A stretch of 64,000 nucleotides of DNA, taken from an uncultured bacterium. GTDB lineage: Bacteria > Lernaellota > Lernaellaia > JACKCT01. A model generated the notes under the pieces. It made no database searches. It was not told the origin of the DNA and saw only the letters and a program-made list of their open reading frames with translations. A program made the translations under genes and the position numbers. Each line of letters starts with the position of its first letter. Position 1 is the first letter of the stretch. Positions 4,785-60,400 of this stretch are shown piece by piece. The stretch is taken from contig CAZPJD010000225.1 in the NCBI GenBank assembly GCA_964586775.1, forward strand, positions 464 through 64,463, given 5' to 3'.

Positions 4785-5771
4785 CTACAAATCCAGCACC
4801 GTCTTAAAGTGCTCGTAGATCTTGCGGTTCGCGTACGATGGAAATCCGATCGAGGTGTAGTGCGTGAGCGGCATGAAGTGGACCGTGGGCTTGCCGTAGG
4901 TGTCGCGCGTTTTCAGCACGAGCTCGCGCGGGATGATGTCGTCGATCGCGCCGTTCACCATCACGAGCCGCGCGGGGTCGATGCGGTCGGCGTAGCGCGC
5001 GGGGTCAACGGGGCCAAAGGCCGGCTCCACCGCGGCGCGAAGCTGCGCGGGCGTGATGTTCTCGCGCTCCATCACCGCGTCGCGCAGCTTGTACACGCGT
5101 GAAAACCCGCTCTCGGCCACGATGTCGGACAGGTGCGCGCCGGTGACCAGAAACCCCGCCGCCTCGACACGCCCGTCGGATTCCATCGTCAGCGCGCCGA
5201 TGATGCCGCCGAGCGAAATGCCCATCACGGCCGTCTTGTTCTTGTCCACGTATGGCAGCGTGTCGAGGTAATCGATCGCCCGGCGCGCGTCGATCACCGC
5301 CTGCCGAATCTGCATGGCGCTGTATTCGAGCGGCTTGTCAGGCTTAAAAAACGTTTCGCGCCGACGCAGCGCGATGACCGTGAAACCGCGTTCGGCGAAA
5401 TACTCGGCGTAGGGTTTGACGATATCATAGGGACCGCCCGTCGGCGGCAGCAGCACCAGCGCGGGAGTCTGCTTGTTCTCGTCCTTGGGCGAATAGAAAA
5501 ACGCCTTCGCGTTCTTCTCCTTCATCTTCTCCATGTCGCGCGCGCGCCATTTGAGGCCGCGTTCGACGTATTTGCCGTGGTCCTTCGTCTTGCCATCGAT
5601 GACGGGCGCAATCGGGTTCGCGCGGTCGTAGGCGAACTCGGGAATCTCCTCGCGCGCGAGCGCCGGCGGCGACGCGGCCATCGTCCCCTCGAAGCGGTAC
5701 GTGGCGCATCCCGACGCGAGCGCGGCAACGGCGAGCGCGAAGACGAACGAAACTCCCGCAAGACGGCGCAT
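4785..5771 (-). CDS. Lipoprotein, alpha/beta-hydrolase fold (dienelactone hydrolase/esterase-like)
   Basis: N-terminal 'FALAVAALASGC' lipobox-like signal; GxSxG nucleophile elbow 'GISLGG'; 328 aa. Confidence 0.7.
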   Translation of the reverse strand: MRRLAGVSFVFALAVAALASGCATYRFEGTMAASPPALAREEIPEFAYDRANPIAPVIDGKTKDHGKYVERGLKWRARDMEKMKEKNAKAFFYSPKDENKQTPALVLLPPTGGPYDIVKPYAEYFAERGFTVIALRRRETFFKPDKPLEYSAMQIRQAVIDARRAIDYLDTLPYVDKNKTAVMGISLGGIIGALTMESDGRVEAAGFLVTGAHLSDIVAESGFSRVYKLRDAVMERENITPAQLRAAVEPAFGPVDPARYADRIDPARLVMVNGAIDDIIPRELVLKTRDTYGKPTVHFMPLTHYTSIGFPSYANRKIYEHFKTVLDL

Positions 5772-19570: not shown

Positions 19571-19588
19571 CTGTGTAAAACTCCGTTC

Positions 19589-20220: not shown

Positions 20221-22560
20221 TCAGATCTCGTACCAGCAGCCGTCGGCGGCGGTCATGAAGGCGTCGTCGTCGCTGTCGAGCTCGCCGGACTGATCGAGGT
20301 CCGCGCCATCGCACCAGCTATTGCCGGCGTCGCACGACGCACCCTCACCGAAGTTCGTCCACGCCGTGTCGAAGTCGGCCTGATCGTCGGCGTCCACATC
20401 GCCGTCGCCGTCGAGGTCGGGCCGCTCGCAACCCAGAACCGCCCACGAGCAGTCGAGCACGGTGGGTTCCATCGCGCAGTTGGGGATCTCGTTCAGATAG
20501 ATCGCCCCGCCGAAGCCCTGGTGCGTGATGTTGGGAATCTCCTCCCAGTCGCCGTCGACGTTGACGACCTCGTAATGATCGCCGTTGCGCTTGATCGGCT
20601 TGTCGGCCTCGGTGGGGAAGCGGTCCCAATAGCGGTCGTAGGTTTCCGGCCGATCGGCGTAGCCGTTCACCTCGGCGAGGATCTGGCTCCACAAATCCGC
20701 GTCGCTCCACAGCGCGCGCGGCGTGCTGTCGCCGCGATTCAGCACGTCCTCGAACACATCCTGATAGCGCTCGGCGCGCACCCAGCCCTGCGGGTCGTAA
20801 TCGGCGTTGCCCACGCCCGCGATGTGCGCGTACTGGGCGACCTTCTGGAGTTCCTCGATCGCCTCGTTCACGTAATTCGATGGCGGCACGGGCTGCGCCT
20901 GCGCCCAGTCGAGCGTGAGCTGCGCGCTGATGCGGTGCAGCTCGGTGATGTGGAAGAGCGCCTCGCGCGCCTCCTGCAGCAGATCGCCCTTGTTGGCGAG
21001 CTGCGCGTAATACACCAGCGCGAAGGCGGCCATCTCGGGCTGGTCGGTCGCGTCGGCGATCTGCATCAGGATGTCGGCCACGCTCGACCCGCCCAGGTTG
21101 ACGGCGATGCGCATGAGGTCTTCGAGCGACTGGCCGAGGATGTTGAGGTTGTAAATGTCGCCCCAGCCGAGGCCGATGTAGGCGTCATCCATGTTTTCGC
21201 AGGTCTTCGTCAGGTTGCCGGGAACCGGGATGCCCAGCGCCTCGAGCAGCATCTTGATCGCGATGATCTCATACGACCCCGGCGTCTCGACGGGCTCCGT
21301 GGGCGAGGTCAGGCCGTCCGCCGACATCGCCTTGGCCATGTACGACATCTGGCAGGAATTCATCGAGCCGAGCCACTCGGGGCCCTCATCCGCGCCGTCG
21401 GGGCGGATTTCGCCGGCGACGATCAGGTGGTCCTCGTCATAGGGCTCGAACTCGCCCACCGTCATCAGGTTGTAGCCCTCGCCGATGGTGCGATCGCCGA
21501 TGCGCTGCCCGGCGGCCCACGCGCGCTCGGCCGAGGCGCGCACGTCGGCGTCGGCGCCGGCGTCGTTCATCGCCTCGAGCGCGGCGAAGTAGCCCACGCC
21601 GAAATCGGGGAAGTTGTCGCGGCTGTTGTGATTGCCCCAGAAGTAGCCCTCGAAGGGCCCGAGCTGGCTGATCATGTACGACGAGCAGCAGTTCGAGATG
21701 CGCAGGTAGTAGGGCATCTCCTCGAAGACGAATGTCACGGCGTAGTCGCCGGGGCGCAGGATCGACTCGATGCGGAAGTAGTGGTCCGTCGGTTCGCCGT
21801 TGATGGCATACACACCATCGGAGAAGAACGCGTTGATGATCTCTTCTTCGAGCGTGGGCGAGTAGTCCTCGGCGGGGTCGATGGGCGCGCCGTCCAGCGT
21901 GCGCGTCACGGTGCCGCCGGGGCCGTCGATGGTGACGGTAAATCCGGTCTGCCACTCGCGGCAGGTGAGACCGTCGATGCCCTGGATTTCCTCGGCGTAG
22001 GCGAGGCCCTCGAACTGGCGGATCGCGGTGAGGGCCAGTTCGCGCGTGCGGAAGATCTTGTAGGCCTGATACGCGTTGAAGGCTGAGAAGCCGATCCAGT
22101 TGTTGTCCACCGGGTGGAGCTGGACTTCGTAGTCGCTGCCGTCCTTGGCGATGTTCGTGTGGCCCAGCGTGTGCGCGGGCACCACGTCGCCGACGAGCAT
22201 GAAGCGGTTGTACGCCTTGAGCGTGCGGCCGATGCGCTCCTTGTAATAGAGCTTGAAGGCGTCGGCCTTCGTGGTCGGATTCACCCACGGATCGAAGGGG
22301 ATGTCGTCGTCGGCGTCGTCGTCCGTCGTATCGTCGTCGGTCGTGTCGTCATCCGAGGTGTCGTCGTCGCCGGTGTCGTCATCCGGCAGCGGGGGGAACG
22401 TGTCGTCGTCGCCCGTGTCGTCGTCCGCGGCGTCGTCATCCGCCGCGTCGTCGTCCGGGGTGATCGTCGTCGGCCCGGAATCGTCGTCGTCATCGCCGCC
22501 GCACCCCGCGACAAACGCCAGAGCCATCACCACCGCCACCGCCCAACCCCACCTGTTCAT
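20221..22560 (-). CDS. Lipoprotein with N-terminal (DDDx)n acidic repeat tether and C-terminal dockerin/EF-hand-like double Ca-binding motif
   Basis: GGGAGA RBS; 'MNRWGWAVAVVMALAFVAGC' lipobox then 'GGDDDDDSGPTTITPDDDAADDDAADDDTGDDD...DDDTTDDDADDD'; C-terminus 'DLDGDGDVDADDQADF...DLDQSGELDSDDDAF'. Confidence 0.7.
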   Translation of the reverse strand: MNRWGWAVAVVMALAFVAGCGGDDDDDSGPTTITPDDDAADDDAADDDTGDDDTFPPLPDDDTGDDDTSDDDTTDDDTTDDDADDDIPFDPWVNPTTKADAFKLYYKERIGRTLKAYNRFMLVGDVVPAHTLGHTNIAKDGSDYEVQLHPVDNNWIGFSAFNAYQAYKIFRTRELALTAIRQFEGLAYAEEIQGIDGLTCREWQTGFTVTIDGPGGTVTRTLDGAPIDPAEDYSPTLEEEIINAFFSDGVYAINGEPTDHYFRIESILRPGDYAVTFVFEEMPYYLRISNCCSSYMISQLGPFEGYFWGNHNSRDNFPDFGVGYFAALEAMNDAGADADVRASAERAWAAGQRIGDRTIGEGYNLMTVGEFEPYDEDHLIVAGEIRPDGADEGPEWLGSMNSCQMSYMAKAMSADGLTSPTEPVETPGSYEIIAIKMLLEALGIPVPGNLTKTCENMDDAYIGLGWGDIYNLNILGQSLEDLMRIAVNLGGSSVADILMQIADATDQPEMAAFALVYYAQLANKGDLLQEAREALFHITELHRISAQLTLDWAQAQPVPPSNYVNEAIEELQKVAQYAHIAGVGNADYDPQGWVRAERYQDVFEDVLNRGDSTPRALWSDADLWSQILAEVNGYADRPETYDRYWDRFPTEADKPIKRNGDHYEVVNVDGDWEEIPNITHQGFGGAIYLNEIPNCAMEPTVLDCSWAVLGCERPDLDGDGDVDADDQADFDTAWTNFGEGASCDAGNSWCDGADLDQSGELDSDDDAFMTAADGCWYEI

Positions 22561-25012: not shown

Positions 25013-27874
25013 TCAACAGCCGCAGCCGTCGTCGTCGTCATCGCCGCCGCCGTCCGCCGCCGACGCGTCGTCGTCCGACGTATCGTCGTCCATCGAATCG
25101 TCGTCGGTGATGTCGTCGTCCGCCGTGTCATCGTCGACCGTGTCGTCGTCGTCGGTGTCGTCGTCCAACGTATCGTCATCCGTCGTGTCGTCATCGACGG
25201 TGTCGTCGTCGACGTCGTCATCCGCGTCGTCGTCGGTATCGTCGTCGCCGGGGATCGTGGTCGTCGTGGTCGATGTCGTGGACGTGGTGGTTGCAGTCGT
25301 GGACGTGGTGGTCGTTGTCGGCGTGCCGGTGCTCGGCCATCCCACGACCTCGATGTTGTCGAGGCCCCAGTACTGCGCGTCGAGCCCCGCGTTCTTGTAA
25401 TAGAAACGCACGAAGACCTGCGGATACAGATCGGCTTCGGGCAGGTCGAAGGTCACCGCGCCCTCCTGATCCGCACCCCAGTTCACCAGATTCGTCCACG
25501 TCACCCCGTCGTAGGACCACGCCACCTGCGCGCGGTCGAGCAGGCCGTGCCGATACTCGTGCCGGAAACGCAGTTCGATGCCCTCGTGGTGCGAGCAGTC
25601 GAGCGCGGGCGTGATGAGCTGTTCGTCGAGACGCTGGAACTCGCCCGTCGTCTCCTTATCCGCGGCGACGAAGCGGTCCATCCAATGCGGCGAGCTGCGC
25701 GATCCCGCGTTGTCGCTGTTCCACGTCACGGTGTTCGATCCGCCGTCCACGATCTGCCAGGGACGCGGCTCGAGATCGAAGTTGTCGAAGAAGATGCGGT
25801 CGGGCCCGGTGGGCGACGCGGTCACCTCCACCGTGTTGCCGTCGCAGTTGCCGAAGGGATCGCACGCGCGCACCACGTAGTACCAATCCGCGCCGTTGGG
25901 CGCCCATTGATCGAGCCAGGGCGACTCGGTCGCGGTGTCGATGGGGTCGTCGAAATCCTGAGCCCCGGACGCGTCCGCGCGGTAGATGCTGTAGACCACC
26001 ACGCCCGTGTCGGCCGCGGGATCCCACGTGATCTCGGCCTCGTTGTCGAGGCCCGTCGCGCCGGTCGCGCCCGCGAATGTCGGCGCGGCGCAGTCGGCGC
26101 TTGCGATTTTCGTCTCGACGACGTTGATGCCGCCCTCGCCGTCGTTGGCGTCGGTGTAGGTGACCGTGATCGTGTCGCCGTTCGCGAGTTGCAGCACGCC
26201 GTCGGCCGCGGGCGCGCCGGTCGCGGTGGCGATCTGGCCGCGGAAGAGGCCGTCCACTTCCGCGTCCTCGGTCAGGGCGAGCGTCTCGCCGCCAGGCTCG
26301 GTCGTGCTCTTCACGTTCACGTTCAGCGTGCCCGACAGATCGCCCTCGGTCACGGTGACGCGCACGACGTCGTCGCACGAGTACAGCGCACGGTCGATGG
26401 AGAGCGTCGCGTTCGACGTGACCATCTCGGCGAGCAGCCACCAGTACGCCTCGACCACGTCGATGCGCCCGCGCCCGTAGACGTTGTCCTCGCCGGCCGC
26501 GCCCAGATCGACGGCGGTCTCGTAGAGCGCCATCTTCACCTGCTCCACCGTCGCCTCGGGAAAAGCGCCGCGCAGCAGGATCGCCGCGCCGGTCACCGCG
26601 GGCGTGGCCATCGAGGTGCCGCTCATGGTGCTGTAGTTGTTGCCCGGCACCGACGACATGACGTTGTCGCCGATCGCCGAAACCTCGGGCTTGAGCGTCA
26701 GATTGTCGCAGCGCGACGGCCCGCGCGACGAAAAACTCGTGATCGTCGTGTTGTCCTGCTTGAGCGCGCCCACCGCAAAGGTGTTGAGCGACGTCGTGAT
26801 GCGATTCCCCGGCGAACGCAGCGATTTCGCCGTGGGTCCCTCGTTGCCCGCCGCGAAGAGCACCACCACGCCCGCGGCCTCGGCCGCGTCGATCGCCGCG
26901 TAAAAGTCGTTCGCGCACGACGGATTCGGGATGCCCCACGAGTTGTTCACCGCGTCGGGCACGTCGTCCACCGTGCCGGGGTTGCCGTCGGGATCCGCCA
27001 TCCACTCGAACGCGCCGATCGCGTCGCTGTAGATGTTGCCGCCGGGTACGTCGATCGTCTTCGCGCCGATCCACTTCGCGCCCGGGGCCATGCCGATCTG
27101 GTGCCCCGCGCCGTCGTCGCCCAGGATCGTGCCGAGGGTGTGCGTGCCGTGCGAGCCGGAGTCCGTCGGGAAGGTCTCGCTGCCGACGGGATCGAACCAC
27201 GCGTGCTCGGGCAGCACGCCGCCGTCGAGCCCGCGCCACCGATCGGCGAACGCGGGGTGCGTGGCATCCGCGCCCGTGTCCTGATCGCAGGCCAGCGCGC
27301 CCGTGCCGTCGTAGCCCATCGCCCACAGCTCCGGCGCGCGCGACGCCGTGATGCTGCCCAATATGCCCGTGGCCACGTCATCGGCGGCGATCGCGTCGCC
27401 CACGGCGACCGGTTCGATCAGCTCCAGCGGCGGATCGAGATAGACATTCGCGATGTCGCGCCGCGCGCGCAGCGTTTCGATGTACGCCGCGTCGGCCTCG
27501 ATCGCGACCGCGTTGGCGATCCAGAATGGACGCACCCGGCGCACCGCCGCCCCCGCGCCCGCGAGCGTGCCCAACAGCGCGCCCTGCGTGGACGCGGCCA
27601 TGTCCTGCAATTCCTCGATGACGAGCGCGTGGCGCTGCGCCCGGGTCAGGCGCGCGTCGTCCATGAACGCGGTGAGCGCGGCCAGATCCACCGATTCGGC
27701 CATCGTGAGGTAGATGTTCAGCGTTTCGCCGGGCGCGGCGGCGGCCAGCACGTCCTCGAGCGCGTCGTCGAAACGCGCGGCGTTCGCGACGGAGGGCGAA
27801 ATCGCGAGAAGAATCAGCAGAGCGACAAAGGAAACATGGCGGGAAAAACGCAACGTGGACATGGCAACTCCCAT
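25013..27874 (-). CDS. Secreted subtilisin-like serine protease (S8) with propeptide, FN3 and jelly-roll C-terminal domains, poly-Thr linker and (DDDx)n-GCGC C-terminal tail
   Basis: Signal peptide; catalytic triad blocks 'DTGADATHPAF', 'SHGTHTLGTI', 'GTSMATPAVTG'; C-terminus 'TTTTTSTTATTTSTTSTTTTTIPGDDDTDDDADDDVDDD...DDDDDGCGC*'. Confidence 0.85.
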   Translation of the reverse strand: MGVAMSTLRFSRHVSFVALLILLAISPSVANAARFDDALEDVLAAAAPGETLNIYLTMAESVDLAALTAFMDDARLTRAQRHALVIEELQDMAASTQGALLGTLAGAGAAVRRVRPFWIANAVAIEADAAYIETLRARRDIANVYLDPPLELIEPVAVGDAIAADDVATGILGSITASRAPELWAMGYDGTGALACDQDTGADATHPAFADRWRGLDGGVLPEHAWFDPVGSETFPTDSGSHGTHTLGTILGDDGAGHQIGMAPGAKWIGAKTIDVPGGNIYSDAIGAFEWMADPDGNPGTVDDVPDAVNNSWGIPNPSCANDFYAAIDAAEAAGVVVLFAAGNEGPTAKSLRSPGNRITTSLNTFAVGALKQDNTTITSFSSRGPSRCDNLTLKPEVSAIGDNVMSSVPGNNYSTMSGTSMATPAVTGAAILLRGAFPEATVEQVKMALYETAVDLGAAGEDNVYGRGRIDVVEAYWWLLAEMVTSNATLSIDRALYSCDDVVRVTVTEGDLSGTLNVNVKSTTEPGGETLALTEDAEVDGLFRGQIATATGAPAADGVLQLANGDTITVTYTDANDGEGGINVVETKIASADCAAPTFAGATGATGLDNEAEITWDPAADTGVVVYSIYRADASGAQDFDDPIDTATESPWLDQWAPNGADWYYVVRACDPFGNCDGNTVEVTASPTGPDRIFFDNFDLEPRPWQIVDGGSNTVTWNSDNAGSRSSPHWMDRFVAADKETTGEFQRLDEQLITPALDCSHHEGIELRFRHEYRHGLLDRAQVAWSYDGVTWTNLVNWGADQEGAVTFDLPEADLYPQVFVRFYYKNAGLDAQYWGLDNIEVVGWPSTGTPTTTTTSTTATTTSTTSTTTTTIPGDDDTDDDADDDVDDDTVDDDTTDDDTLDDDTDDDDTVDDDTADDDITDDDSMDDDTSDDDASAADGGGDDDDDGCGC

Positions 27875-29978: not shown

Positions 29979-31547
29979 CTAGCACCCGCATCCGTCGTCG
30001 TCGTCATCGTCGTCGTCGTCGCCGTACGCGGGGATGTCGGTGGACGTGTCGTCGTCACCGGAATCGTCATCCGCCGTATCGTCATCCGCGGTGTCGTCGT
30101 CGGAATCGTCGTCCGCCGTATCGTCGTCGCTATCGTCGTCGCTGTCGTCATCGGTGTCGTCATCGTCGGGTTCGATCAGATCGTCGTCGCCGAAGGGTCC
30201 GCCGCCGGGCAGGATGCCGTAGTACACGCCCATCCAGTAGCCGACGAGGTAGTCCATACCCGGGCCCACATAGCGCTGGTCCTCGCCGTGGTTGCAGCCC
30301 GTCTCGAAGGGCGTCGACTGCCAATACATGTCGGTCCAGTGCCGGTCGTCCAGCTCGCGCGCCTCGGCGGTGATCGGGTCGATGTTGATGAGATCGTTCA
30401 GCCACGGGTACTGGTTGCCCAGCTCGTCGAGCAGCACCGACAGCGGATCGAGCGGCATGTCCGAGCACGTGCGCGCGCGGCGGTAGCTCGGCGCGTCCCA
30501 ATATCGGCCCAACGTGTTGAAGTGGTCGTCCTCGATCCAGTCGTAATCGTCTTCCACGCAATTGCCGAGACGCAGGCAGCCGGTCACGTGCGTCGAATCG
30601 AACCAGGGGTTGTGCGTTCGTTCCACATAGGGGCGGTTGTAGGTCATCCACAGATCGTAGAGTTCCTCGAGCCGCTCGCGATCCGGCCACAGGCGAAACA
30701 CCGCCTGAAAATCCAAATGACGCAGGTTGTTGCCGTAGTACTCGGTGTACTTGTTGTATCCGGCCCAGATGTCCACCGCGAGCACGGGCCGCCACAGGTT
30801 GTACTGCTGGTCGAGCAGTTCCCAAATCTCGGGTGTGTCGATCACGTACGCGGCCTGCACGAGCCACGCGATGCGCTTCATCGGGCCGATCCACGCCGCG
30901 CCGTTGCCCGTGTATTCGCCGTTCTGGTCGGTGATGTTCCAGTCGTTCGTCGTGAGCATCTCGATCACGTCGATGATGTCGTCGCGGATGCCCGCGCGCA
31001 CGTCCTCGTGCTCGGCGAGTCCTTCGAGCGCCTGATACGAGAGCACCATGCCCCACCACCAGCCGCTGTATTGGTCGCGGCTCGTGTGATCGACCCAGTA
31101 GAGCCCCGCGAACTCGCCCTCGCCGTGATTTTTCCAGTCGTTGTCATCGCCCTGGCCGCAGTTCCACGGGGCGATGTCCTCGCCCGCGAAGCGAGCGATG
31201 TAGCCCAGCGTCTGCGTGATCGCCATGGCGGTGCGCATGTATTCGACCACGCGCAGCACCTCGTCGAGCGCGCCCTCGTCGCCCGTGGCCATGTAGCGCA
31301 GCGCCTCGGCGCCCAGGTACATGCCCGTCCAGATCATGCTGTCGCCCTGATGGTGCAGGCAGCCGATCTCGGTACGCGTCTCGTCGGTGAACTCGACCGC
31401 GCCGGTGAGCGCACCGAGGCTTCCGTTGTGCCAGGTCTCGATCCACTCCTGATACGCCTCGGCTTTGGCGTGCAGATCGGGATCGAAATCGGCCCACGCG
31501 GGGGAAACCGCGAGACAAATCGTCAGAATCAACAGCGCGCGTCGCAT
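29979..31547 (-). CDS. Secreted protein of unknown function with C-terminal (DDDx)n acidic repeat ending -DDDDDDDDDGCGC
   Basis: Signal peptide 'MRRALLILTICLAVSPAWA'; Trp/Tyr-rich globular body; tail 'DDDDTDDDSDDDSDDDTADDDSDDDTADDDTADDDSGDDDTSTDIPAYGDDDDDDDDDGCGC*'. Confidence 0.7.
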   Translation of the reverse strand: MRRALLILTICLAVSPAWADFDPDLHAKAEAYQEWIETWHNGSLGALTGAVEFTDETRTEIGCLHHQGDSMIWTGMYLGAEALRYMATGDEGALDEVLRVVEYMRTAMAITQTLGYIARFAGEDIAPWNCGQGDDNDWKNHGEGEFAGLYWVDHTSRDQYSGWWWGMVLSYQALEGLAEHEDVRAGIRDDIIDVIEMLTTNDWNITDQNGEYTGNGAAWIGPMKRIAWLVQAAYVIDTPEIWELLDQQYNLWRPVLAVDIWAGYNKYTEYYGNNLRHLDFQAVFRLWPDRERLEELYDLWMTYNRPYVERTHNPWFDSTHVTGCLRLGNCVEDDYDWIEDDHFNTLGRYWDAPSYRRARTCSDMPLDPLSVLLDELGNQYPWLNDLINIDPITAEARELDDRHWTDMYWQSTPFETGCNHGEDQRYVGPGMDYLVGYWMGVYYGILPGGGPFGDDDLIEPDDDDTDDDSDDDSDDDTADDDSDDDTADDDTADDDSGDDDTSTDIPAYGDDDDDDDDDGCGC

Positions 31548-34680: not shown

Positions 34681-35325
34681 TCACCGCTTTCGCACGCGGC
34701 CCGTGCTCACGGCCCACCAGCCGTAGGCGAATCCGCCGATGTGCGCCCACCACGCCACACCCGGCGCGCCGGGGTCGCTCATGATCGATCCGAGGATTTG
34801 CATGCCGAGCCAAAGACCGATGAAGATGCGCGCACGCCAGATGAAAAAGATCGGGTAGATGACAATGAGAAAAAATCCCTTGATGCGCGCGGCGGGAAAC
34901 AGATGCAGGTATGCGCCCAGCACCGCCGCCACCGCGCCCGACGCCCCGACCATCGGCACGCGCGATCCCCGCTGCACCACCGCGTGCGCGAGGCACGCGA
35001 CCATCGCGGCGACGAGATAGAAACGCACGAACGCGCCGCGCCCCAGCCGGTCCTCGACGTTGTCGCCGAAGACCCACAGGAACAGCATGTTTCCCGCCAG
35101 ATGCGCGATGCCGCCATGCAGGAACGCGCTGGTGATCGCCGTGACCGGTGTGAGGACCGAATCCCATGCCCACGGATGCAGCAGCTGATAGGGCACCGCC
35201 GCGAAACGCAACCCCGCATCCCGCGCGCCGAGCTGCCACACGAATGCGGCGACATTCGCCGCGATGAGCAGCGTCGTCATCACCGGCGCGCGGCGCGTGG
35301 GGTTGAGGTCGCGATAGGGAATCAT
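34681..35325 (-). CDS. Rhomboid-family intramembrane serine protease
   Basis: 6-7 TM; 'GASGAV' GxSG catalytic Ser and 'AHIGGF' His helix; convergent with tatC (7 bp apart). Confidence 0.75.
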   Translation of the reverse strand: MIPYRDLNPTRRAPVMTTLLIAANVAAFVWQLGARDAGLRFAAVPYQLLHPWAWDSVLTPVTAITSAFLHGGIAHLAGNMLFLWVFGDNVEDRLGRGAFVRFYLVAAMVACLAHAVVQRGSRVPMVGASGAVAAVLGAYLHLFPAARIKGFFLIVIYPIFFIWRARIFIGLWLGMQILGSIMSDPGAPGVAWWAHIGGFAYGWWAVSTGRVRKR

Positions 35326-35432
35326 GCCCGGGCAGGAATAGCACAACGGTCGCGCGGGCGCGACGTGTCGCGCCGATCTTGTTGACGCCGACGCGGCGCG
35401 CGAGAATGATGTGGCGCGACTTTGGGGGTCGA

Positions 35433-36485
35433 ATGTCCATCGCCGCGACGACCGTGACCGAGATGTACGAACGCATGCGCGAGCGCTTGGCGCGCCTCGT
35501 GCCCGAGGCCGAGCTGCGCCTGAAGGCCGAGATCGCGTTCGAGGTCAATCGCCTCAAGGCCGAGCGCGGCGCGATCGTCCTCGGCCACAACTACATGGAG
35601 CCCGCGCTCTTCCACTCGGTCTGCGACGTGGTGGGCGATTCGCTGGAACTCTCGCGGCGCGCCGCGGCGGCGAGCGCGGACCCGATTGTGTTTTGCGGCG
35701 TGCGTTTCATGGCCGAAACGGCGAAGATCCTGAATCCCGAACGCACCGTTTTGCTGCCCGCGAAAAAAGCGGGGTGTTCGCTCGCCGACGGCATCACCGC
35801 CGAAGACGTGCGCCGACTGCGCGAGGCGTATCCCGGCGTGCCGATCGTCACCTACATCAACACCTACGCCGACGTGAAGGCCGAGGTGGACGTGGTGTGC
35901 ACGTCGGGCAACGCGGTGCGCGTGGTGAGGGCGCTCGATTCCGACCTCGTGATTTTCCTGCCCGACGAATACCTGGCGCGCAACGTCGCCGCCGAGACGG
36001 GCAAGACGATTCTCGTGCCGACGGGCGATCTGGATTCGCTCGGGGACGTGCGCGCGCGCGGCATCGGCATGATCGGCTGGCGCGCCCGCTGCGAGGTCCA
36101 CGAAAAATACACGGTGGACGACATCGCGAATGTGCGGCGGCAGTTCCCCGACGTGTACGTGCTCGCGCATCCCGAGTGCCGCCCCGAGGTCGTCGAGGCC
36201 GCGGACTATTCCGGCAGCACGACGCAGATGGTACACCAGGTGAAACAGCACGACGCGGCGCACTATCTGCTGCTCACCGAATGCAGCATGGGCGACAACA
36301 TCATCGCCGAGAACCCCGAGCGCGACATTTTGCGGATGTGCTCGGTGCGCTGCCCGCACATGAACGAGATCACGCTCGAAAACGTGCTCGATTCGCTGCG
36401 CCACGACGCGGAGACGATCGAGGTCGAGGAATCGGTGCGTGTGCGCGCGCGCAAATCGCTCGACCGGATGCTGGCGATCGGGTGA
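35433..36485 (+). CDS. nadA: Quinolinate synthase
   Basis: 'IVLGHNYM', 'VVCTSGNAV', 'HPECRPEV' NadA blocks; ~350 aa. Confidence 0.85.
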   Translation: MSIAATTVTEMYERMRERLARLVPEAELRLKAEIAFEVNRLKAERGAIVLGHNYMEPALFHSVCDVVGDSLELSRRAAAASADPIVFCGVRFMAETAKILNPERTVLLPAKKAGCSLADGITAEDVRRLREAYPGVPIVTYINTYADVKAEVDVVCTSGNAVRVVRALDSDLVIFLPDEYLARNVAAETGKTILVPTGDLDSLGDVRARGIGMIGWRARCEVHEKYTVDDIANVRRQFPDVYVLAHPECRPEVVEAADYSGSTTQMVHQVKQHDAAHYLLLTECSMGDNIIAENPERDILRMCSVRCPHMNEITLENVLDSLRHDAETIEVEESVRVRARKSLDRMLAIG

Positions 36486-36507: not shown

Positions 36508-37902
36508 ATGCGGACCTACTGCCGGAAGGTTTTGTTCCTTCCCCTCTTGGCCGTATTGCTTCTCACCGGCTGCACAGGAGACGACGATTCGCCTTCGTCG
36601 GACTCCGGCGTAACAAGCGATGACGACTCGGCGTCGGACGACGACACGACCGCCGATGACGACGCGGCGGACGACGATCTCGCGGACGATGACGACGACG
36701 GGCCGAGTTATCGCCCGATCCTGTTCGTGCATGGATTCCTCGAAGACGGCGACGCCTTTCACGCGCAGTCGCAGCGCTTCGCCACGAACGACTACGACCT
36801 CGATCGCGTCTTCGCCGTCGATTACAACACGCTCTGGGCGACGCCGGACGCCGTCGATCTGATCGGCGGGGCGATCGACGAGATCCGCGCGCTCACCGGC
36901 GCCGACGACGTCGACCTGATCGGCCACTCGATGGGCGGGTCGATGGGCGCGGATTATCTGCAGGGCGCCCCCGCGCCGAACCACGTCGCCCACTACGCCC
37001 ACGTGGCGTCCTTCGATTTCGAAACGGCGGGCATCGACGCGCCGATCCTCAATCTGTCGTCCGAGGCCGATGCGGTGGTCGGTGCGCGAGAGATCGACGG
37101 CGCGACCAACGTGGTGCTGCCCGGCCTCGACCACCTGCAACTCGCGACGTCGCCCGAGACCTTCGAGCAGCTCTTCACCTTCTTCAACGGCGAGCCGCCC
37201 GCGACGCTCGAGGTCGAGCCCGCCTCGCCCATCACGCTCTCGGGACGCACACTCGTCTTCGGCACGAACGAGCCCGCGCCCGCGCAGATCGTGCGCATCT
37301 TCGCGGTCGATCCCGCGACGGGGGAGCGCGACGCCGCCGAGCCCGACGCGGTTTTCACGTCCGACGCGACCGGCGCGTGGGGCCCATTCGATGCTGAGCC
37401 GGACACGCACTACGAGTTCGAGATCCGCGACGAGGCCGGGCGCTGGCCGGCGGTGCGTTATTACCGCGAGCCGTTTATGCGTTCGAGCCGCCTCGTGCAC
37501 TTTCGCGTGTTGCCCGATTTCGATTCGGCGTTCGCGGTGCCGTTCAAGCTGCTACCGCTGCTGGGTGATCGCGTCGCCTTTGCCTCGCTCAACCTCAACC
37601 GCGCGGCGATCGCCGGGCGCGACACCTTCACCGTGGACGGAATCGACCTGGCGACCGAAGACGTTACGCCCGCCGACCAGAGCGTTCTCGCGGCGGTGTT
37701 CGCCGATCTCAACTTCAACGGCGCCACCGACGGACCGATCCTGCCCGGCATCGTCGGCCTCTTTCCGTTCTTCACGATCTACGATCTTTTCGCCGATCCC
37801 GGCGTCGGCGATCCCATCCCGATCGAATTCAACGGACGCACTCTGACGATCCGAGGGGACGAGGGCCCCGCCGAGTCGCTCTCCATCGCTCAATTCGACT
37901 GA
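36508..37902 (+). CDS. Lipoprotein lipase/esterase (alpha/beta-hydrolase) with N-terminal poly-Asp tether
   Basis: 'MRTYCRKVLFLPLLAVLLLTGC' lipobox followed by 'TGDDDSPSSDSGVTSDDDSASDDDTTADDDAADDDLADDDDDG'; 'ILFVHGF' and 'GHSMGGS' (GxSxG). Confidence 0.7.
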   Translation: MRTYCRKVLFLPLLAVLLLTGCTGDDDSPSSDSGVTSDDDSASDDDTTADDDAADDDLADDDDDGPSYRPILFVHGFLEDGDAFHAQSQRFATNDYDLDRVFAVDYNTLWATPDAVDLIGGAIDEIRALTGADDVDLIGHSMGGSMGADYLQGAPAPNHVAHYAHVASFDFETAGIDAPILNLSSEADAVVGAREIDGATNVVLPGLDHLQLATSPETFEQLFTFFNGEPPATLEVEPASPITLSGRTLVFGTNEPAPAQIVRIFAVDPATGERDAAEPDAVFTSDATGAWGPFDAEPDTHYEFEIRDEAGRWPAVRYYREPFMRSSRLVHFRVLPDFDSAFAVPFKLLPLLGDRVAFASLNLNRAAIAGRDTFTVDGIDLATEDVTPADQSVLAAVFADLNFNGATDGPILPGIVGLFPFFTIYDLFADPGVGDPIPIEFNGRTLTIRGDEGPAESLSIAQFD

Positions 37903-55397: not shown

Positions 55398-57606
55398 ACG
55401 CCGCGTTGAGTTCGCCGAAGTCGTAGAACAGGTCCCCGACGCCGTCGGGCGTCCACAGACTCCAGGCGAGTTCCTCGGTCGCGGGCAGCCACAGCCAGTT
55501 CGGATCGGCGAAGTCGTCGCTCGTGCCCGGCGTCGGTTTGCCGATGAAGCCCGAGCCGCCGAAGTCGCTCGCGTTCTTCATCCACATGAAGCTCTGGCTC
55601 ACGTTGTCGCCGCCGGGGCCGCCCACGTAGGACGCGATGCCCGCCGCCGAGAATTCCGTGAACGTCGAAAACGCGTAGACGTAGTTGAGGATCGCCGAGC
55701 CGTTGGCAAGCCACGCGCACCAGGTGATGCCGTCGTCTTTGGGAATCAGGCCGTAGACGCTCGGCGGCTCGGGCGGATTCTCGCCCGGCGCGGGCGCGGC
55801 GAGGCGCGAGCCGTTCTGCATCGACGCGATCATGTCGGCCCACACGAAGACGTGCGTGCCCGGCATCTGCGAACGCACCCGGCGCACGACCTCGCTCACC
55901 GAATAGCCGAACAGCTCGGCGGGGGATTTTGCCGCCGACGCGCAGACGGGGTTTTCGTTGAAGCGCGCGATGTCGGTGTGGCCGATGTGGATCGCAGTGG
56001 GTGCGAGCACATCGCGGATGTTCGCGAGCATCGGCTCTAAAATGTCCGTGTACATTCCTTCGACGAGCGGGCAGGTGTCGTCGCTATCGCCTTCGGCGCA
56101 GTCGTATCCGCGCAGCGCGCACTCGGCGATCACGCGATCGGCGTGGCCGTACCACGAAAATGCGGGCACGGGTTCCATGCCGTGGGCGCGCACGAATTCG
56201 AACAGTTCGGAGCCGTCCTCGCGCACGAACTCGTTATCGAGATCGAAGTACCAGTCGCCGGGGATGACGAGGTGCGTGAGCTTGAGCTCGCCGAGGTAGC
56301 GGATGCGGCGCTTGGCCTCGTCGGTGAGCGGCAACAGGTTTTCAACGACCGTGCCGCGGATCGGGAAATCGGGCCGATCGGCGACGGTGATCGCGGGGAT
56401 CGCTTCGGCGCTTTCGTGCTGGTTGACGACGCGCAACAGGCTGCCCGTGCCGTAGATGGCGCCGGCGAAATCCGCGCCCGCCACGGCGATGCCGCTCGCC
56501 GAGACCTCGAGCAAGTACGAACCGGGCACGGTGCCCGCGGGCAGAAAGCGCGCGTCGTTCATGGCGCGCAGCACGCCGTTGTCGTCGAGGGTGCCGATGG
56601 CGATGACGTTATCCGCGCCGGTCACATCGACCGATGGCGCGAGCGCGGGCCGCGAGCCGGTCATGCGCTCGATGGCGTCCTGCAGAAACGACGCGACATC
56701 GGCGTAGCGCGACATCTGGTCGGGCGGCAGGGCGATCACGGTTTCGGCGTTCGGGGTAAAGCCCGCCTCGGGGCGGAAGCCCGCGGGGTGCGGCTCGGGC
56801 ACGATCGCCAGCTTGTAGGGACTTTGCACATCGGCGCGGAAGCCGCGGTCGTAAATTTCGGCCTCGCTCATCGCGCGATTCCACACACGCAGGTCGTCGA
56901 CCAGCGCGTCGGGCGCGGAGCCGGTTTGCAGGCCGCCCAACAGGATCGGCACGTCGGCGTCGAAGCCGGAGACGGGGCCGCGCATCTCGGCGACGAGCGA
57001 TCCGTCGAGATACAGGCGACGCACGGCGTCGTGATCGCGGTCGCCCACGCCCTTCCACGTGACGGCGAAGTGCGTCCATCCGCTGCGCCAGATCCACGGC
57101 TTGCGGATCGAGAAGCCATAGTAGTCGAGCACGGGGCGGTCGTCGGTGGGCGTCACGCCCGCGCCGCCGATGGCGAAGACGGGCTTGTTCTTCAGGCCGT
57201 CCTTGAACATCGAAAAATTCGTCTCGTCGCCGATGGCGAGCAGGTGGCGCTTGATGCCGTCGTGCCAGACGGTCTTGGGCAGCACCCACATCTCGAGCGT
57301 GCCGTCGGTCGAGGGCACGCGGCCGATGGCCGGGGCGACGAGCTGCACGCCCTCGCCCAGCGCGATCGCGTTGCCGGTCAAACCCGGCACAAACGCCGCG
57401 TCGGCGTCGCCCGCGACCAGCGTCGCGCCCTTGGCGGCCAAGTCGTCGGCGCTCTCGAAGTCGAGCGACCACACGAGCTCGCCGCCATCGTCGTCATCGT
57501 CGTCGTCATCGCCGCCGGAGCAAGCCGACGCAATCAGCGCGACGCACGCCGCCACGCACCAAATCCCCAGCGCGCCGAATCGCGCGTCGCGAAGTTTTCG
57601 CGTCAT
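55384..57606 (-). CDS. Lipoprotein with poly-Asp tether, LamG/concanavalin-like domain and GH20-like (beta-hexosaminidase-related) domain
   Basis: 'MTRKLRDARFGALGIWCVAACVALIASAC' + 'SGGDDDDDDDDGG'; LamG-like 'LYLDGSLVAEMRG...LRVWNRAMSEAEIYDRGF'; GH20 domain-2-like 'ITVADRPDFPIRGTVVENL' and 'AIHIGHTDIA' in place of the canonical HIGGDE. Confidence 0.6.
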   Translation of the reverse strand: MTRKLRDARFGALGIWCVAACVALIASACSGGDDDDDDDDGGELVWSLDFESADDLAAKGATLVAGDADAAFVPGLTGNAIALGEGVQLVAPAIGRVPSTDGTLEMWVLPKTVWHDGIKRHLLAIGDETNFSMFKDGLKNKPVFAIGGAGVTPTDDRPVLDYYGFSIRKPWIWRSGWTHFAVTWKGVGDRDHDAVRRLYLDGSLVAEMRGPVSGFDADVPILLGGLQTGSAPDALVDDLRVWNRAMSEAEIYDRGFRADVQSPYKLAIVPEPHPAGFRPEAGFTPNAETVIALPPDQMSRYADVASFLQDAIERMTGSRPALAPSVDVTGADNVIAIGTLDDNGVLRAMNDARFLPAGTVPGSYLLEVSASGIAVAGADFAGAIYGTGSLLRVVNQHESAEAIPAITVADRPDFPIRGTVVENLLPLTDEAKRRIRYLGELKLTHLVIPGDWYFDLDNEFVREDGSELFEFVRAHGMEPVPAFSWYGHADRVIAECALRGYDCAEGDSDDTCPLVEGMYTDILEPMLANIRDVLAPTAIHIGHTDIARFNENPVCASAAKSPAELFGYSVSEVVRRVRSQMPGTHVFVWADMIASMQNGSRLAAPAPGENPPEPPSVYGLIPKDDGITWCAWLANGSAILNYVYAFSTFTEFSAAGIASYVGGPGGDNVSQSFMWMKNASDFGGSGFIGKPTPGTSDDFADPNWLWLPATEELAWSLWTPDGVGDLFYDFGELNAAYGSY

Positions 57607-57610
57607 GGAT

Positions 57611-60400
57611 CTACTCCTCCAACACGTCTGGATCGAGCGGGTCGGCCAGCCATTCGGGATCGACCAGCATGTAGAGGTTGTCCTCAATGATCTGGCCTTG
57701 GCTCTTGAGGAACAACGCGGCCTGACGGCGCGCGGCGATGGAATACATGATGGAGTAGGGGTCGAAGCGCGGGGCGAGCATGTACTCGTGGTTGTATCCC
57801 GGGTGCACGCGCCACGCCTGATGCGCCACGCTCTGCAACGGCAGGTTGCCGTTGGCGAACGACACGCGGATCTCGTTGAGCGCGCCGCGGTCGAGCAGAT
57901 TGTCCATGTGCCAATCGTCGATGACGCCCGCCGCGCGGATGATCGCCGTGCCCGCCTGCAGAGGAATCGCCGAGTCGGGCGAGCACACCTGCATGATGAA
58001 GTTCTTCGGGCCCGCCTCGGTCACCGGATCGAGGAACAGGTGCGGCGCGAAGCTGATGGGGTCGGACAGGCCGACGGCCCACTGCGCGTTGTCGATGAAC
58101 GAGCGCGCCTCGGGCGTGTTGCGATCGACGCCCAGGCCCCGGTACTCGGTGGCGAACTCGAACTTGCCGATGGGCTTCTCGGTCGCCGGATCGGTCACCG
58201 TCAGCCGCAGCCAGTCGCCCTTGTCCGCGCCCACCGCGATGGCGAAATTCCCCGTCGCGTCCACCGTCTTGTGCTTGATGACGCCGGTCTTGGTGTTTTC
58301 CATGCTGATGCGCTTGCCCGCCGCGAGGGGCACGTCGCCGATGAAGGTGTTGAACACCTCGCTGCCGAATTCGAGATCGAGCGCCTCGGCGTGATAGTTG
58401 AGGTGCGTCACGCCCTTGGCCGCGTCGGGCGTGCCGATGATCATGGGACCGAGCAGGTCGGCGCGCACGCCGTAGTTGACGTTGGGGATCGTCGTGCGCT
58501 GCAAAATGTCGGTGAGACCGCCGCCGGGCACGTTGAACACGGCGGACTTGATCTCGGGCTCCAGCGACACGAAGGGAATGCCGATCAGCGAGCCGAGGCT
58601 CATGCCGACGAACGAGATTTCACCGTCCGGCCCGGCCACGTCGAGCACGCCGTCGAGGTTGAAATCGCCCTCCTCCAGATCCAGCTTGCCGTTGCCGTTC
58701 CAATCCGTGCCCATGTTGCGCAGCACGCGCACGGCCTGGAAAAGATCGAACACGGTTTGGTGCGAGATCGCCACCGTGCGGAAGATGTCGGCCGAATAAA
58801 AGCTCTGGCCCGAGATGATGAGCCCGTCGCCGTCGAAGTCCGGCGTGCGCCCGTGCAGCATCGCGCCCAGGAACGTCTTGTCCTTCAGCACCTGCACCAG
58901 CTCTTTCGAATCGAGGCCGCTGATGTCGATGTTGGGGTAGAAGATCCCCATGATGATCTTGACAAGCAGGCTCGCCGGCACGTCGCCCAGCGGGCCGATC
59001 TCAAGGTCGTTGAAGCTGTCGAGCGCGTAGTAGATGGCGCTCACGTAAGTCTCGGGGCCGTGCTCCGCCGCGTCGATACCGATCGTCGCGATGCCCTGCT
59101 CGGCCATGTGGTTCGCCAGCGCCAGCATGTCGAGCCGGTTGCGGATGTTGGCGTGCTGGTGGAACGTGATCGGGTACGGCGGCTGCGCATAGTTGTTCTT
59201 GGCGCACGGCTTGGGCACCGCGATGTAGAACGGCACCTCCTCGGGCGCCCACTCGGCCTCGCCGGTTTCGTAGTTCACGTGAAAGACGCGGTCGTGCGTT
59301 TCGAGGAAGCTCGCGGTCGTGAACGATCCCGAGACGATGTAGTCCACGCTGTCGGTGCCGAACATGACGTCGAGCGGCACGTTCTGGCCGCCCTCGATGA
59401 ATCCGCCGATCAGATCCATGAAGCTGCCGAAGGCCCGCGCGTCCATGACGTAGTCGTTGCCGTCGGTCTCGGTGCCCATCGAGAACGGATCGAGCTGCGT
59501 GATCTTGGGGACGAGATCGTCGGCGAGGTAGTCGAATGGGCCCTCGCCGTGAAGTCCGCGCCGCAGCTCCTGCAAATGATCGGTGATCGTCGCCGTCGTG
59601 AATTCCCAACCAAACGCGATGTCCTCGGGATTCACGCCTTTTTTCGTCGCCAGAATCTCGGCGGCGTCGGTGAGCGAATCGAACTGCTCGGGGAACGTGA
59701 CCTTTTCAAAATAATCCGGCGGGCGCACCGGGAAACCGTTCTCGCCCTTCAGGCCGGTCGTCAGCACCACGGCGTATTTGCTGGCCTGCTTGAGCGGCAC
59801 GAGCGGGCGGATCAGCAGCGTGTTCGTCGCGTCCTCATACCACTCCACGCGGTTGTCCGCGGCGAAGATGACCGTGGGGTTGTCGGCGTTTTCGTCGTTC
59901 GGGAAAAACGCCTCGGGGTCCACCATGTTCTTGGGGTAGTAGCCCTTGCCCAGGTCGAGCTCGACGATGTCGCCGTAGTACTTGGAGTCGCGCTGCACGT
60001 TGACGAGGTAGATGTTCTCGTCGCGGATCGTGAACAGGTTGATCGGCATCGAGAACGACACGGCGACGTGCGAGAAGTTCGCGAAACCGTCGAGCTGACG
60101 AAGCCTCGAGCGCAGGTCGCGCCCGAGCTGCGTCTCGGCCTCCTGCGGAATGTTGACGCGAAGGCCGGTGCGCGTCGTCGGGTCGTCTTTGGCGAGGATG
60201 TTGTTGGGCTGCGGGATCAGCGAAATCGGTTTCGCGCCCGGCTCGAAGAGCACCTCGGGGCCGTCGCCGCCGGGGTTCTCGAAGTCGTAGCCCTCGGGCC
60301 GCTCATCGTCCGATTCGCCGCGGGTGCATCCCCCCGCCGTCACGAGCGCGAGCGCCAGCACCGCCAAACCTACCCACGACCAATTCGCTTTCACCACCAT
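57611..60400 (-). CDS. Large secreted (lipo)protein of unknown function with possible alpha/beta-hydrolase nucleophile elbow
   Basis: Start chosen at 'MVVKANWSWVGLAVLALALVTAGGC' (ORF extends to 60685 through an Arg-rich, unlikely segment); 'FVGMSLGSLIG' GxSxG-like; 4-bp gap to the downstream lipoprotein gene. Confidence 0.55.
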   Translation of the reverse strand: MVVKANWSWVGLAVLALALVTAGGCTRGESDDERPEGYDFENPGGDGPEVLFEPGAKPISLIPQPNNILAKDDPTTRTGLRVNIPQEAETQLGRDLRSRLRQLDGFANFSHVAVSFSMPINLFTIRDENIYLVNVQRDSKYYGDIVELDLGKGYYPKNMVDPEAFFPNDENADNPTVIFAADNRVEWYEDATNTLLIRPLVPLKQASKYAVVLTTGLKGENGFPVRPPDYFEKVTFPEQFDSLTDAAEILATKKGVNPEDIAFGWEFTTATITDHLQELRRGLHGEGPFDYLADDLVPKITQLDPFSMGTETDGNDYVMDARAFGSFMDLIGGFIEGGQNVPLDVMFGTDSVDYIVSGSFTTASFLETHDRVFHVNYETGEAEWAPEEVPFYIAVPKPCAKNNYAQPPYPITFHQHANIRNRLDMLALANHMAEQGIATIGIDAAEHGPETYVSAIYYALDSFNDLEIGPLGDVPASLLVKIIMGIFYPNIDISGLDSKELVQVLKDKTFLGAMLHGRTPDFDGDGLIISGQSFYSADIFRTVAISHQTVFDLFQAVRVLRNMGTDWNGNGKLDLEEGDFNLDGVLDVAGPDGEISFVGMSLGSLIGIPFVSLEPEIKSAVFNVPGGGLTDILQRTTIPNVNYGVRADLLGPMIIGTPDAAKGVTHLNYHAEALDLEFGSEVFNTFIGDVPLAAGKRISMENTKTGVIKHKTVDATGNFAIAVGADKGDWLRLTVTDPATEKPIGKFEFATEYRGLGVDRNTPEARSFIDNAQWAVGLSDPISFAPHLFLDPVTEAGPKNFIMQVCSPDSAIPLQAGTAIIRAAGVIDDWHMDNLLDRGALNEIRVSFANGNLPLQSVAHQAWRVHPGYNHEYMLAPRFDPYSIMYSIAARRQAALFLKSQGQIIEDNLYMLVDPEWLADPLDPDVLEE

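Follow-up and report, generated by a model that had tools for sequence, protein, structure and literature searches.

Poly-aspartate segments beside lipobox and C-terminal cysteines in secreted proteins of a probable Lernaellota bacterium

The stretch of DNA analyzed here, 64 kb of contig CAZPJD010000225.1 (hereafter the window), encodes lipoproteins in which the cysteine (Cys) of the lipobox is followed by a long and almost pure poly-aspartate (poly-D) segment. We consider it likely that these are Sec/signal-peptidase-II lipoproteins carrying a lineage-specific, disordered and polyanionic spacer, used as a module together with a terminal Cys anchor. The typical arrangement is the Cys, one to three small residues (G/A/S), a run of D4-8 starting at +3 to +6, usually a short S/P/T/G stretch, and a (DDDx1-2)n body, with a net spacer charge of about -20 to -50. 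Such a spacer may keep an enzyme that faces its substrate at a fixed distance from the membrane holding the anchor; electrostatic extension, repulsion from anionic envelopes and the low helix propensity of Asp relative to Glu would be further properties. It would avoid sticking to anionic surfaces and would offer few protease sites, because the linker lacks K, R and large hydrophobic residues. It also seems to be a reusable module, in that the same genomes join enzymes secreted by way of signal peptidase I (SPI) to a C-terminal ...D(n)-G-C-G-C end that replaces the N-terminal lipobox. This reading draws on the exact placement of the segments, their kept length with free sequence, their predicted disorder, the presence of other low-complexity linkers elsewhere, and the mutual exclusivity of the two ends. 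The lipidation of the Cys, the outward orientation of the enzymes, the physical role of the spacer and a possible part for the Cys-proximal D-run as a sorting mark are inferences.

Lipoproteins with poly-Asp tethers

Two window lipoproteins have the full arrangement, both with a canonical n-region, h-region and lipobox (Table 1). Gene 36508-37902(+) translates as MRTYCRKVLFLPLLAVLLLTG-C22-TGDDDSPSSDSGVTSDDDSASDDDTTADDDAADDDLADDDDDG-PSYRPILFVHG, and its Pfam matches (Lipase_C, 6e-20; Lipase_2; Abhydrolase_1) identify an alpha/beta-hydrolase lipase, for which 68 homologues were found. The lipase tether comprises 43 aa with a net charge of about -20 and is encoded by imperfect 18/33-nt repeats. 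A match to the Pfam family DUF7537 at the lipase N-terminus (E 0.006, below cutoff) is probably caused by a similar signal and acidic-linker region. Gene 20221-22560(-), read as ...MALAFVAG-C20-GGDDDDDSGPTTITP(DDDxx)n...DDDADDD-IPFDPW, encodes a protein without a match in Pfam or NCBIfam, and its low-complexity tether of 66 aa has a net charge of about -36. The NCBIfam model NF058595, "lipo-invert putative C-terminal anchoring domain", reaches its signal/lipobox region below threshold (E 0.019, with 15 bits where the cutoff is 37), which is a lead and not a membership; the name "lipo-invert" was not found in the papers searched. The third lipoprotein, gene 55384-57606(-), has an acidic segment of 13 aa, C29-SGG-D8-GG, with no DDDx body, and a 12-nt DNA repeat lies at 57488-57511 within its gene. 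The lipase and the 20221 protein have more than 22 residues predicted to be disordered directly after the Cys, and the 55384 protein does not.

The lipoboxes LLTG-C, FVAG-C, IASA-C and TAGG-C, the last from gene 57611-60400(-), fit the pattern [LVI][ASTVI][GAS]-C, and the lipobox Cys is nearly invariant in the lipase and 20221 families. The Cys of the poly-D lipoproteins is predicted to be lipidated, with cleavage by signal peptidase II. The original prediction, made from the letters of the window, had described three lipoprotein hydrolases with a lipobox Cys and 4-residue repeats spanning 40-90 residues. The lipase and the 20221 protein agree with this in their lipobox, poly-D and span, while the 55384 protein is a weaker, head-only case; the dominant repeat period is five residues (DDDxx) mixed with four, not strictly four. 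Hydrolase character is borne out by Pfam for the lipase, and the 55384 protein shows only LamG_3 and a GH20b accessory domain. Gene 57611-60400(-), listed as a weaker example, drops out, as its post-Cys segment TRGESDDERPEG is of mixed charge and not poly-D.

We compiled 62 non-redundant tethers. They consist of 51% D, 2% E and less than 1% K+R, a D:E ratio of 24:1. Position +2 is G in 50% and otherwise A, S or, in 10% (6/62), D; +3 is G/D/S and +4 is D/G. The first run of at least three D begins at +3 to +6 in 43 of the 62, and the window proteins conform with C-TG-DDD, C-GG-D5 and C-SGG-D8. At +2 they have T, G and S, and so lack the Asp that marks the E. coli-type Lol-avoidance signal. The first D-run is longer than later ones (median 5 vs 3, Wilcoxon p=2e-6, n=46), a p value that is optimistic given that the sequences are related. 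In the window, runs in the tether bodies are exactly D3 and the longer runs adjoin the Cys. Some lipoproteins have a head only, namely the 55384 protein (D8), an N-glycanase of Candidatus Lernaella (D7, locus L058 894) and L057 2-586 (GGGGG-D5). A mirror symmetry, with the long D-run beside the Cys at both protein ends, was considered and dropped as a general rule, the N-termini giving p=2e-6 and the C-terminal tails of the 29982 family (introduced below) p=0.16.

Asp makes up about 6% of ordinary window proteins and 45-58% of the poly-D segments; this enrichment, with the roughly 40-fold density in related genomes given below, excludes chance as an explanation. The tether DNA repeats are imperfect, with 62-82% matches at periods of 15/30/45 nt (Tandem Repeats Finder, TRF), and GAC is the Asp codon in 78% of cases in linkers and 72% elsewhere in genes. 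In the AlphaFold2 (AF2) model of the full-length lipase, a signal helix is followed across residues 21-64 by coil with a predicted local distance difference test score (pLDDT) below 50 and then by a confident fold; residues 21-38 and 48-64 combine pLDDT <50 with an absence of secondary structure.

Tether conservation across orthologues and genomes

Lipase orthologues from 50 GTDB species were compared by reading each sequence from the lipobox Cys to the conserved PIVFVHG strand. This segment is (DDDx)n in FEN-1099-type metagenome-assembled genomes (MAGs), (GSG)n in MAGs of Bradymonadia and related "delta" groups, G/A/D-rich in Myxococcales, and short and CKKDD-like in Bacteroidota, while Planctomycetota have an SPI-secreted form without a lipobox. 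The poly-D linker was thus confined, within this family, to FEN-1099-type genomes. Among 14 protein-database homologues that carry it, its length is 45.4±4.1 aa (range 36-55), even though their catalytic domains are 40-88% identical and the linkers are not alignable. In a strain variant of the 20221 protein (at least 90% identity), no D triplet is lost and the total length is unchanged; only the x residues differ (A, T, S, G). What is selected appears, from these comparisons, to be the length and composition of the linker and not its sequence. The central proposal of the original prediction, a lipid anchor plus a flexible acidic spacer, is supported here: the poly-D segment fills precisely the stretch from the lipobox Cys to the fold's first conserved residue, has a prediction of disorder, and keeps its length but not its sequence.

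The 20221 family is more variable. Nearly all of its 130 homologues are lipoproteins, and the distance from the Cys to the IPFDPW...AFxLYYKER block ranges from 10-18 aa without a D-run to 120 aa of poly-D. Close orthologues had been proposed beforehand as the place where an absence of poly-D would speak against a sorting-related feature, and the outcome is divided: orthologues at 82-88% identity keep the segment, and those at 58-62% identity, from genomes wholly without poly-D, have none. The short forms of the 20221 family (C-GPGD-IPFDPW) are 58-62% identical to the window protein. Since the tether is kept or lost according to the genome, it is a genome-level trait and not a requirement of the enzyme. 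In the MAG CAZFWM01 the orthologues of both proteins (loci L004 and L052) lack poly-D, whereas locus L055 encodes five such lipoproteins within 22 kb. Counts of D-rich segments of 16 aa or more are 24 for 135 kb of FEN-type DNA and 3 for 660 kb of DNA belonging to other phyla, a density about 40 times higher in the former. The presence or absence of poly-D is a property of the genome and is restricted to a lineage.

Two simpler causes were considered and ruled out. High GC fails as a cause on locus L055 (53% GC), on carrier contigs of 49-70% GC and on the codons of Asp and Glu, which have equal GC although E is excluded. Recent slippage or assembly error is likewise at odds with the imperfect DNA repeats and with the recurrence of the segments in many independent assemblies. 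A phmmer search with the 67-aa tether against 1.84 billion cluster representatives gave 0 matches because the HMMER composition filter removed the poly-D, so it is uninformative on spread. Standard searches are therefore blind to such segments, and the poly-D accounts for these proteins being overlooked or ranked wrongly when homology searches filter by composition.

C-terminal poly-Asp tails

Four other secreted window proteins, with SPI-type N-termini and no lipobox, have D-rich C-terminal regions ending in Cys motifs (Table 1). In the GCGC tails the stop codon comes directly after this motif, and there is neither a transmembrane (TM) helix nor an Arg cluster. An NCBIfam scan of tethers and tails at E<=10 found no sorting-domain model matching the tails, nor did any Pfam sorting model match. 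Strain variants of the 29979-31547(-) tail differ by whole DDDxx units (520-528 aa) within a kept frame, GDDDLIEPDDDDT...STDIPA[YF]G-D8-9-GCGC. Scanned for exact matches to D4-G-C-G-C-stop, the JGI metagenome collection yielded 119 stretches, where a rough chance expectation is below 1; many fall on a few long contigs of one assembly, which points to dozens per single genome.

Lipobox and tail behave as alternatives. Homologues of gene 29979-31547(-), here called the 29982 family, number 84, of which 75 could be scored. An SPI signal with a poly-D tail and Cys-motif end, and no lipobox, is present in 34; 18 of these end in GCGC and the rest in GCCG, ACCG, ACGC, GGCG or GCGG. A lipobox without a tail is present in 24, including 11 with N-terminal poly-D. 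Neither module occurs in 13, and the apparent presence of both in 4 is due to a Cys inside an SPI h-region. The exclusivity is significant (Fisher p=1e-6), and a Cys lies within the last five residues of 38 of the 41 poly-D-tailed proteins of the family. Within 978 kb of metagenome contigs, the 128 tail proteins comprise 103 of SPI type, 18 truncated, 6 unclear and 1 with a lipobox, while only 1 of 50 D-tethered lipoproteins has a tail. In about 240 kb of Lernaellota-type loci, 23 N-terminal segments lie beside a lipobox, 7 C-terminal ones beside a terminal Cys, and a few between domains. The suggestion in the original prediction that N-terminal tethers and C-terminal poly-D/GCGC tails belong to one shared code is supported by these counts.

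A 29982-family member, P0225, has a TM helix and RRRR end in place of poly-D-GCGC, without an NCBIfam match. In poly-D-free genomes, S8 proteases beside the 20221-family orthologue carry other C-terminal anchors: CFI-box-CTERM in L054 6947-9805(+) (NF041770, E 7e-27), and a Cys motif, TM helix and RR in L052 17754-20711(-). This suggests that the type of anchor was swapped between lineages.

The sole protein found with both modules is a 104-aa open reading frame (ORF), L076 453-764(+), in which a signal peptide and lipobox Cys are followed by nearly pure poly-Asp and then GCGC-stop. Further GCGC-type tails, or CGSC/GCCG variants, occur on the SPI-secreted proteins L005 3793-6099(-), L005 1909-3750(-) and L046 11232-13184(-). 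Poly-Thr (TTTTTSTTATTTSTTSTTTTT) stands directly upstream of the poly-Asp tail at 25255-25320(-), at 48945-49097(-) and in L046 11232-13184(-), so that the linkers of the S8 protease, the Kelch protein and a relative have two parts, Thr first and then Asp. An SPI-secreted family of about 220 aa (L073 3555-4181; L097 2527-3201; L101 1085-1753 and 2014-2715; L141 2992-3657) has poly-D directly after the predicted cleavage site (..AFA-QDDD..) as well as a poly-D-GCGC tail; poly-D at the N-terminus therefore does not always go with a lipobox.

Distribution among lipoproteins

Lipoproteins with and without a D-run were surveyed in the same Lernaellota-type loci and metagenome contigs, with roles taken from annotation. 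Carriers, carbohydrate-active enzymes and esterases among them, are the GH20b/LamG protein, GH1, GH31, a GH67C-like protein, two sialidase-like BNR_4 proteins, the lipase, a pectin acetylesterase and a chlorophyllase/PETase-like esterase. The run is also present on an FGE-sulfatase protein, N-glycanase_C, DUF4185, DUF5005, Lcl_C and many proteins without a Pfam match. Housekeeping-type lipoproteins without it are BamD/YfiO, SppA (S49), a Peripla_BP_2 binding protein, CapA (PGA_cap) and a tetratricopeptide repeat (TPR) protein; a cupin, DUF3124, two sulfatases, a trypsin-like protease and abhydrolases also lack it. Some hydrolase lipoproteins are therefore tetherless, and a need of exo-enzymes for the tether is no strict rule. 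The split resembles the one that first defined the lipoprotein export signal (LES) of Bacteroides, here by annotation alone and with exceptions. Poly-D also occurs outside lipoproteins, both as interdomain linkers and in small proteins of very acidic character, where it begins right behind the SPI site; it is specific neither to lipoproteins nor to hydrolases. The motif flags a probable exo-enzyme set in an uncultured polymer-degrading group.

Relation to known signals and linkers

Disordered linkers after a lipidated Cys and short acidic export motifs are already known. In about half of the outer-membrane lipoproteins of E. coli, a disordered linker of more than 22 aa follows the Cys, and its length and disorder matter, not its sequence (El Rayes et al., bioRxiv 10.1101/2021.01.05.425367). 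The poly-D tether is alike in being unstructured for more than 22 aa directly after the Cys and in keeping length and disorder but not sequence. It differs in its almost pure Asp with DDDx(x) periodicity, its length of up to 120 aa, its restriction to one lineage and its reuse at C-termini. The LES of Bacteroidota has the forms CS(D/E)2-3 and K-(D/E)2 (PMC6222051). Here, as there, the acidic residues start one to three positions after the Cys, on glycan- or protein-degrading lipoproteins, and are missing from those that face the periplasm according to annotation; unlike there, the phylum is another, D is almost exclusive where the LES accepts E, and a long repeat follows the run. The Bacteroidota orthologues of the window lipase carry a short, CKKDD-type motif of their own. 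Surface lipoproteins of Acinetobacter baumannii that depend on the T2SS (type II secretion system) and GspN have a P2'-P8' motif of GGG or ND(N/D) (PMC12802150), to which the Gly- and/or Asp/Asn-rich residues after the Cys bear a resemblance, not an identity; C-GG-DDDDD joins both flavors, and the poly-D segment is longer than this motif of about 7 residues.

The MYXO-CTERM, JDVT-, Synerg- and CGP-CTERM signals are tripartite, Cys-containing C-terminal signals in which a TM helix and an Arg cluster follow the motif (PMC11980579; bioRxiv 10.1101/2023.06.07.544157). The GCGC tails share with them an invariant Cys in a G-C context and an occurrence on dozens of secreted proteins per genome, and a ...GC end would look like what is left once such a signal has been cleaved. 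They differ in stopping at GCGC, with no TM helix, Arg cluster or NCBIfam match. Low-complexity interdomain linkers of secreted carbohydrate-active enzymes are Pro/Thr-rich or Gly/Ser-rich. Poly-D may act like them as a flexible spacer that connects a catalytic domain to a module for anchoring or binding, keeps its composition and not its sequence, and stands beside poly-Thr in the window; unlike them it is polyanionic, not neutral or glycosylated.

A literature search found no description of a poly-Asp lipoprotein tether, including for Lernaellota/FEN-1099. New here are the phylum-wide, almost pure poly-Asp version of the linker, up to 120 residues and of conserved length, and the apparent service of the same spacer to a second, C-terminal, Cys-ending module that replaces the lipobox. 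The most novel of the leads is the poly-D-GCGC tail, which behaves as a lipobox alternative. It fits no known sorting-signal family and is possibly a new C-terminal anchoring signal; if the GCGC end does anchor, it would form a new class of C-terminal sorting signal.

Alternative explanations

Several observations weigh against a pure spacer. It leaves unexplained the head-only cases (D8 in the 55384 protein, D7 in L058 894), the longer Cys-proximal run (median 5 vs 3, p=2e-6, optimistic as noted) and the near-total exclusion of Glu. Tetherless hydrolase lipoproteins exist (sulfatases, a trypsin-like protease, abhydrolases), and the host is assigned from the names of related MAGs. One alternative is that the Cys-adjacent D-run, with G/A/S at +2, is itself a sorting signal, read by a route that flips or secretes the lipoproteins to the surface, the DDDx body being secondary. 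Such a signal is compatible with a spacer, and we hold it as a tentative possibility. It would agree with the first D3+ run at +3 to +6 in 43/62 tethers, G at +2 in 50%, the longer first run and the head-only lipoproteins (55384, L058 894, L057 2-586). The set of carriers also fits (GH1, GH31, GH67-like, pectin acetylesterase, BNR sialidase-like, PETase-like esterase, lipase, N-glycanase, FGE-sulfatase), as does the lack of a D-run on the periplasm-facing BamD/YfiO, SppA, Peripla_BP_2, CapA and TPR proteins, and there are precedents in the LES (PMC6222051) and Acinetobacter (PMC12802150). Yet C-termini, interdomain stretches and positions following SPI sites also have poly-D, and a lipoprotein signal would be senseless there, so the repeat body itself is no such signal. 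The D:E ratio of 24:1 likewise differs from the tolerance of the LES for E, some hydrolase lipoproteins lack the run, tether lengths are continuous from 8 to 120 aa, and no T2SS, GspN or Slam genes lie in the 64-kb window. If the Cys-proximal run does sort, acidic post-Cys residues would mark surface lipoproteins in a third independent group besides Bacteroidota and Acinetobacter, which would indicate a general physical rule. A bolder combination, which we find unlikely, is a two-ended, Cys-based surface anchoring around one poly-Asp spacer in Lernaellota. In it, GCGC-COOH would be a new TM- and protease-free anchoring or lipidation signal, interchangeable with the lipobox and comparable, in bacteria, to the Rab CXC motif of eukaryotes, in contrast to CaaX and MYXO-CTERM, and the anchor-side Asp run would be read by a dedicated surface export route.

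The remaining alternatives to a Cys-anchored spacer are less likely. Poly-Asp has an established affinity for Ca2+ and calcium minerals, and the segments could chelate Ca2+/Mg2+ or metals, bridging to lipopolysaccharide phosphates or exopolymers and so holding lipid-less C-tail proteins on the cell, or could bind or inhibit mineral surfaces. Although the 24:1 preference for Asp over Glu, the lack of basic residues, the regular D3 periodicity and the DxDxDG-type Ca-binding-like repeats in the proteins that carry poly-D speak for it, chelation alone does not predict the placement beside anchors or the length typical of each family, and orthologues have GS-rich linkers or none; we judge it improbable. 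More improbable still is Lol avoidance, that is, retention in the inner membrane by acidic residues after the Cys, as with Asp+2 in E. coli, with the long spacer reaching across the periplasm. PulA-type T2SS lipoproteins use Asp+2, the tethers do have acidic residues near the Cys, and the BamD gene implies diderm carriers in which a Lol-type decision must exist. The +2 residue is nevertheless T, G or S in the window proteins and D in 6/62 tethers, long disordered linkers favor outer-membrane targeting in E. coli (bioRxiv 10.1101/2021.01.05.425367), and the polymers that are the enzymes' substrates are unlikely to enter the periplasm. We give least credence to a neutral expansion, in which GAC-rich repeats spread by replication slippage in a tolerant lineage and merely join two parts. 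Strain variants that differ by whole DDDxx units (520-528 aa), tandem 15/30/45-nt periods (TRF) and the genome-wide, not protein-specific, nature of the trait would follow from it. The kept linker length of orthologues (45±4 aa), the D triplets kept while x residues drift, the imperfect DNA repeats (62-82% matches), the strict position beside an anchor Cys, the spread of carrier genomes over 49-70% GC and the exclusion of Glu despite equal codon GC all contradict it.

Host lineage and feature coordinates

The GC content is 65-69%, and the genome had first been thought probably myxobacterial. The closest homologues of three window proteins come from MAGs labelled "Deltaproteobacteria bacterium" at NCBI (IT350, KJ042, H6684, M5R36), and from Candidatus Lernaella stagnicola, Candidatus Alcyoniella australis and the isolates "fen_1099" and "FR-FEN-1099-1". 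These relatives are FEN-1099/Lernaellota MAGs, and the Myxococcota/Bradymonadia orthologues have GSG- or G/A-rich linkers. To judge from the names of related MAGs, the source organism is most likely a member of FEN-1099/Lernaellota and not a myxobacterium. Lernaellota is the name of a phylum whose description notes an abundance of secreted enzymes that degrade proteins and polysaccharides (PMC9324843). The carriers are diderm, as a BamD gene on a contig of the poly-D type shows.

Table 1. Window features with poly-Asp segments, and contrasting lipoproteins
Feature	Position	Strand	Basis or detail
Signal peptide and lipobox (LLTG-C22) of lipase lipoprotein	36508..36573	+	Translation; basic n-region, hydrophobic h-region, L-T-G-C lipobox; AF2 helix at residues 2-19
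Poly-Asp tether of lipase, residues 23-65	36574..36702	+	D3 head at +4, S/P/G/T stretch, DDDx(x) repeats, final D5
Lipase catalytic domain and Lipase_C domain, stop codon included	36703..37902	+	Pfam
Signal peptide and lipobox (FVAG-C20) of uncharacterised 779-aa lipoprotein	22501..22560	-	Translation
Poly-Asp tether of 20221 protein, residues 21-86	22303..22500	-	GG-D5 head, SGPTTITP, (DDDxx)n with TFPPLP break
Conserved domain of uncharacterised 20221 family, stop codon included	20221..22302	-	C-terminal DxDxDG-type acidic/Cys region
Signal peptide, lipobox (IASA-C29) and head-only SGG-D8-GG of LamG/GH20b lipoprotein (gene 55384-57606)	57481..57606	-	
Tail of S8 protease (gene 25013-27862; SPI-type signal)	25013..25261	-	Poly-Thr, (DDDxx)n, D5-GCGC-stop
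Tail of uncharacterised secreted protein (gene 29979-31547; SPI-type signal)	29979..30194	-	(DDDx)n ...TDIPAYG-D9-GCGC-stop
Cys-rich repeat protein	2661-4712	+	C-terminal end ...GGCCGCGDNGTDD
Kelch protein	48789-50033	-	Poly-T, poly-D, GGGGCA end
Contrast: VolA/Pla-1-like lipoprotein (weak match)	57611..60400	-	Lipobox TAGG-C; mixed charge after the Cys, outside poly-D class
Contrast: fifth window lipoprotein, DLH/abhydrolase	4785..5771	-	No acidic tether (C-ATYRFEGT)

Further observations

The product of gene 2661-4712(+) is a secreted protein of 683 aa with tandem, Cys-rich acidic repeats (CNGxEEC...C); a similar repeat in locus L052 matches the NCBIfam model "acidic double-disulfide repeat" at a score short of the curated cutoff (E 2e-4, 21 bits vs 41). 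Genes for TatC and a rhomboid-family protease, 33441-34670(+) and 34684-35544(-), lie just upstream of the lipase gene with NadA in between; they were considered as processing candidates for the lipase, and no link to lipoprotein processing was found. A 43-bp tandem repeat at 19394-19575, with 4.2 copies and 89% matches, extends over the beginning of ORF 19421-20089(+) and yields the peptide repeat RCGTFAGHVAQPPP upstream of an apparently transposase-like domain. The AF2 model of the 20221 conserved domain (20221-22302, minus strand) has a pLDDT of 95 and only weak similarity to an (alpha/alpha)6 toroid. The 20221 and 29979-31547(-) families, neither of them modelled in Pfam or NCBIfam (130 and 84 homologues), come mainly from Lernaellota-type MAGs and share a local GxxWxxHxSRD motif (BLASTP E 6e-5).

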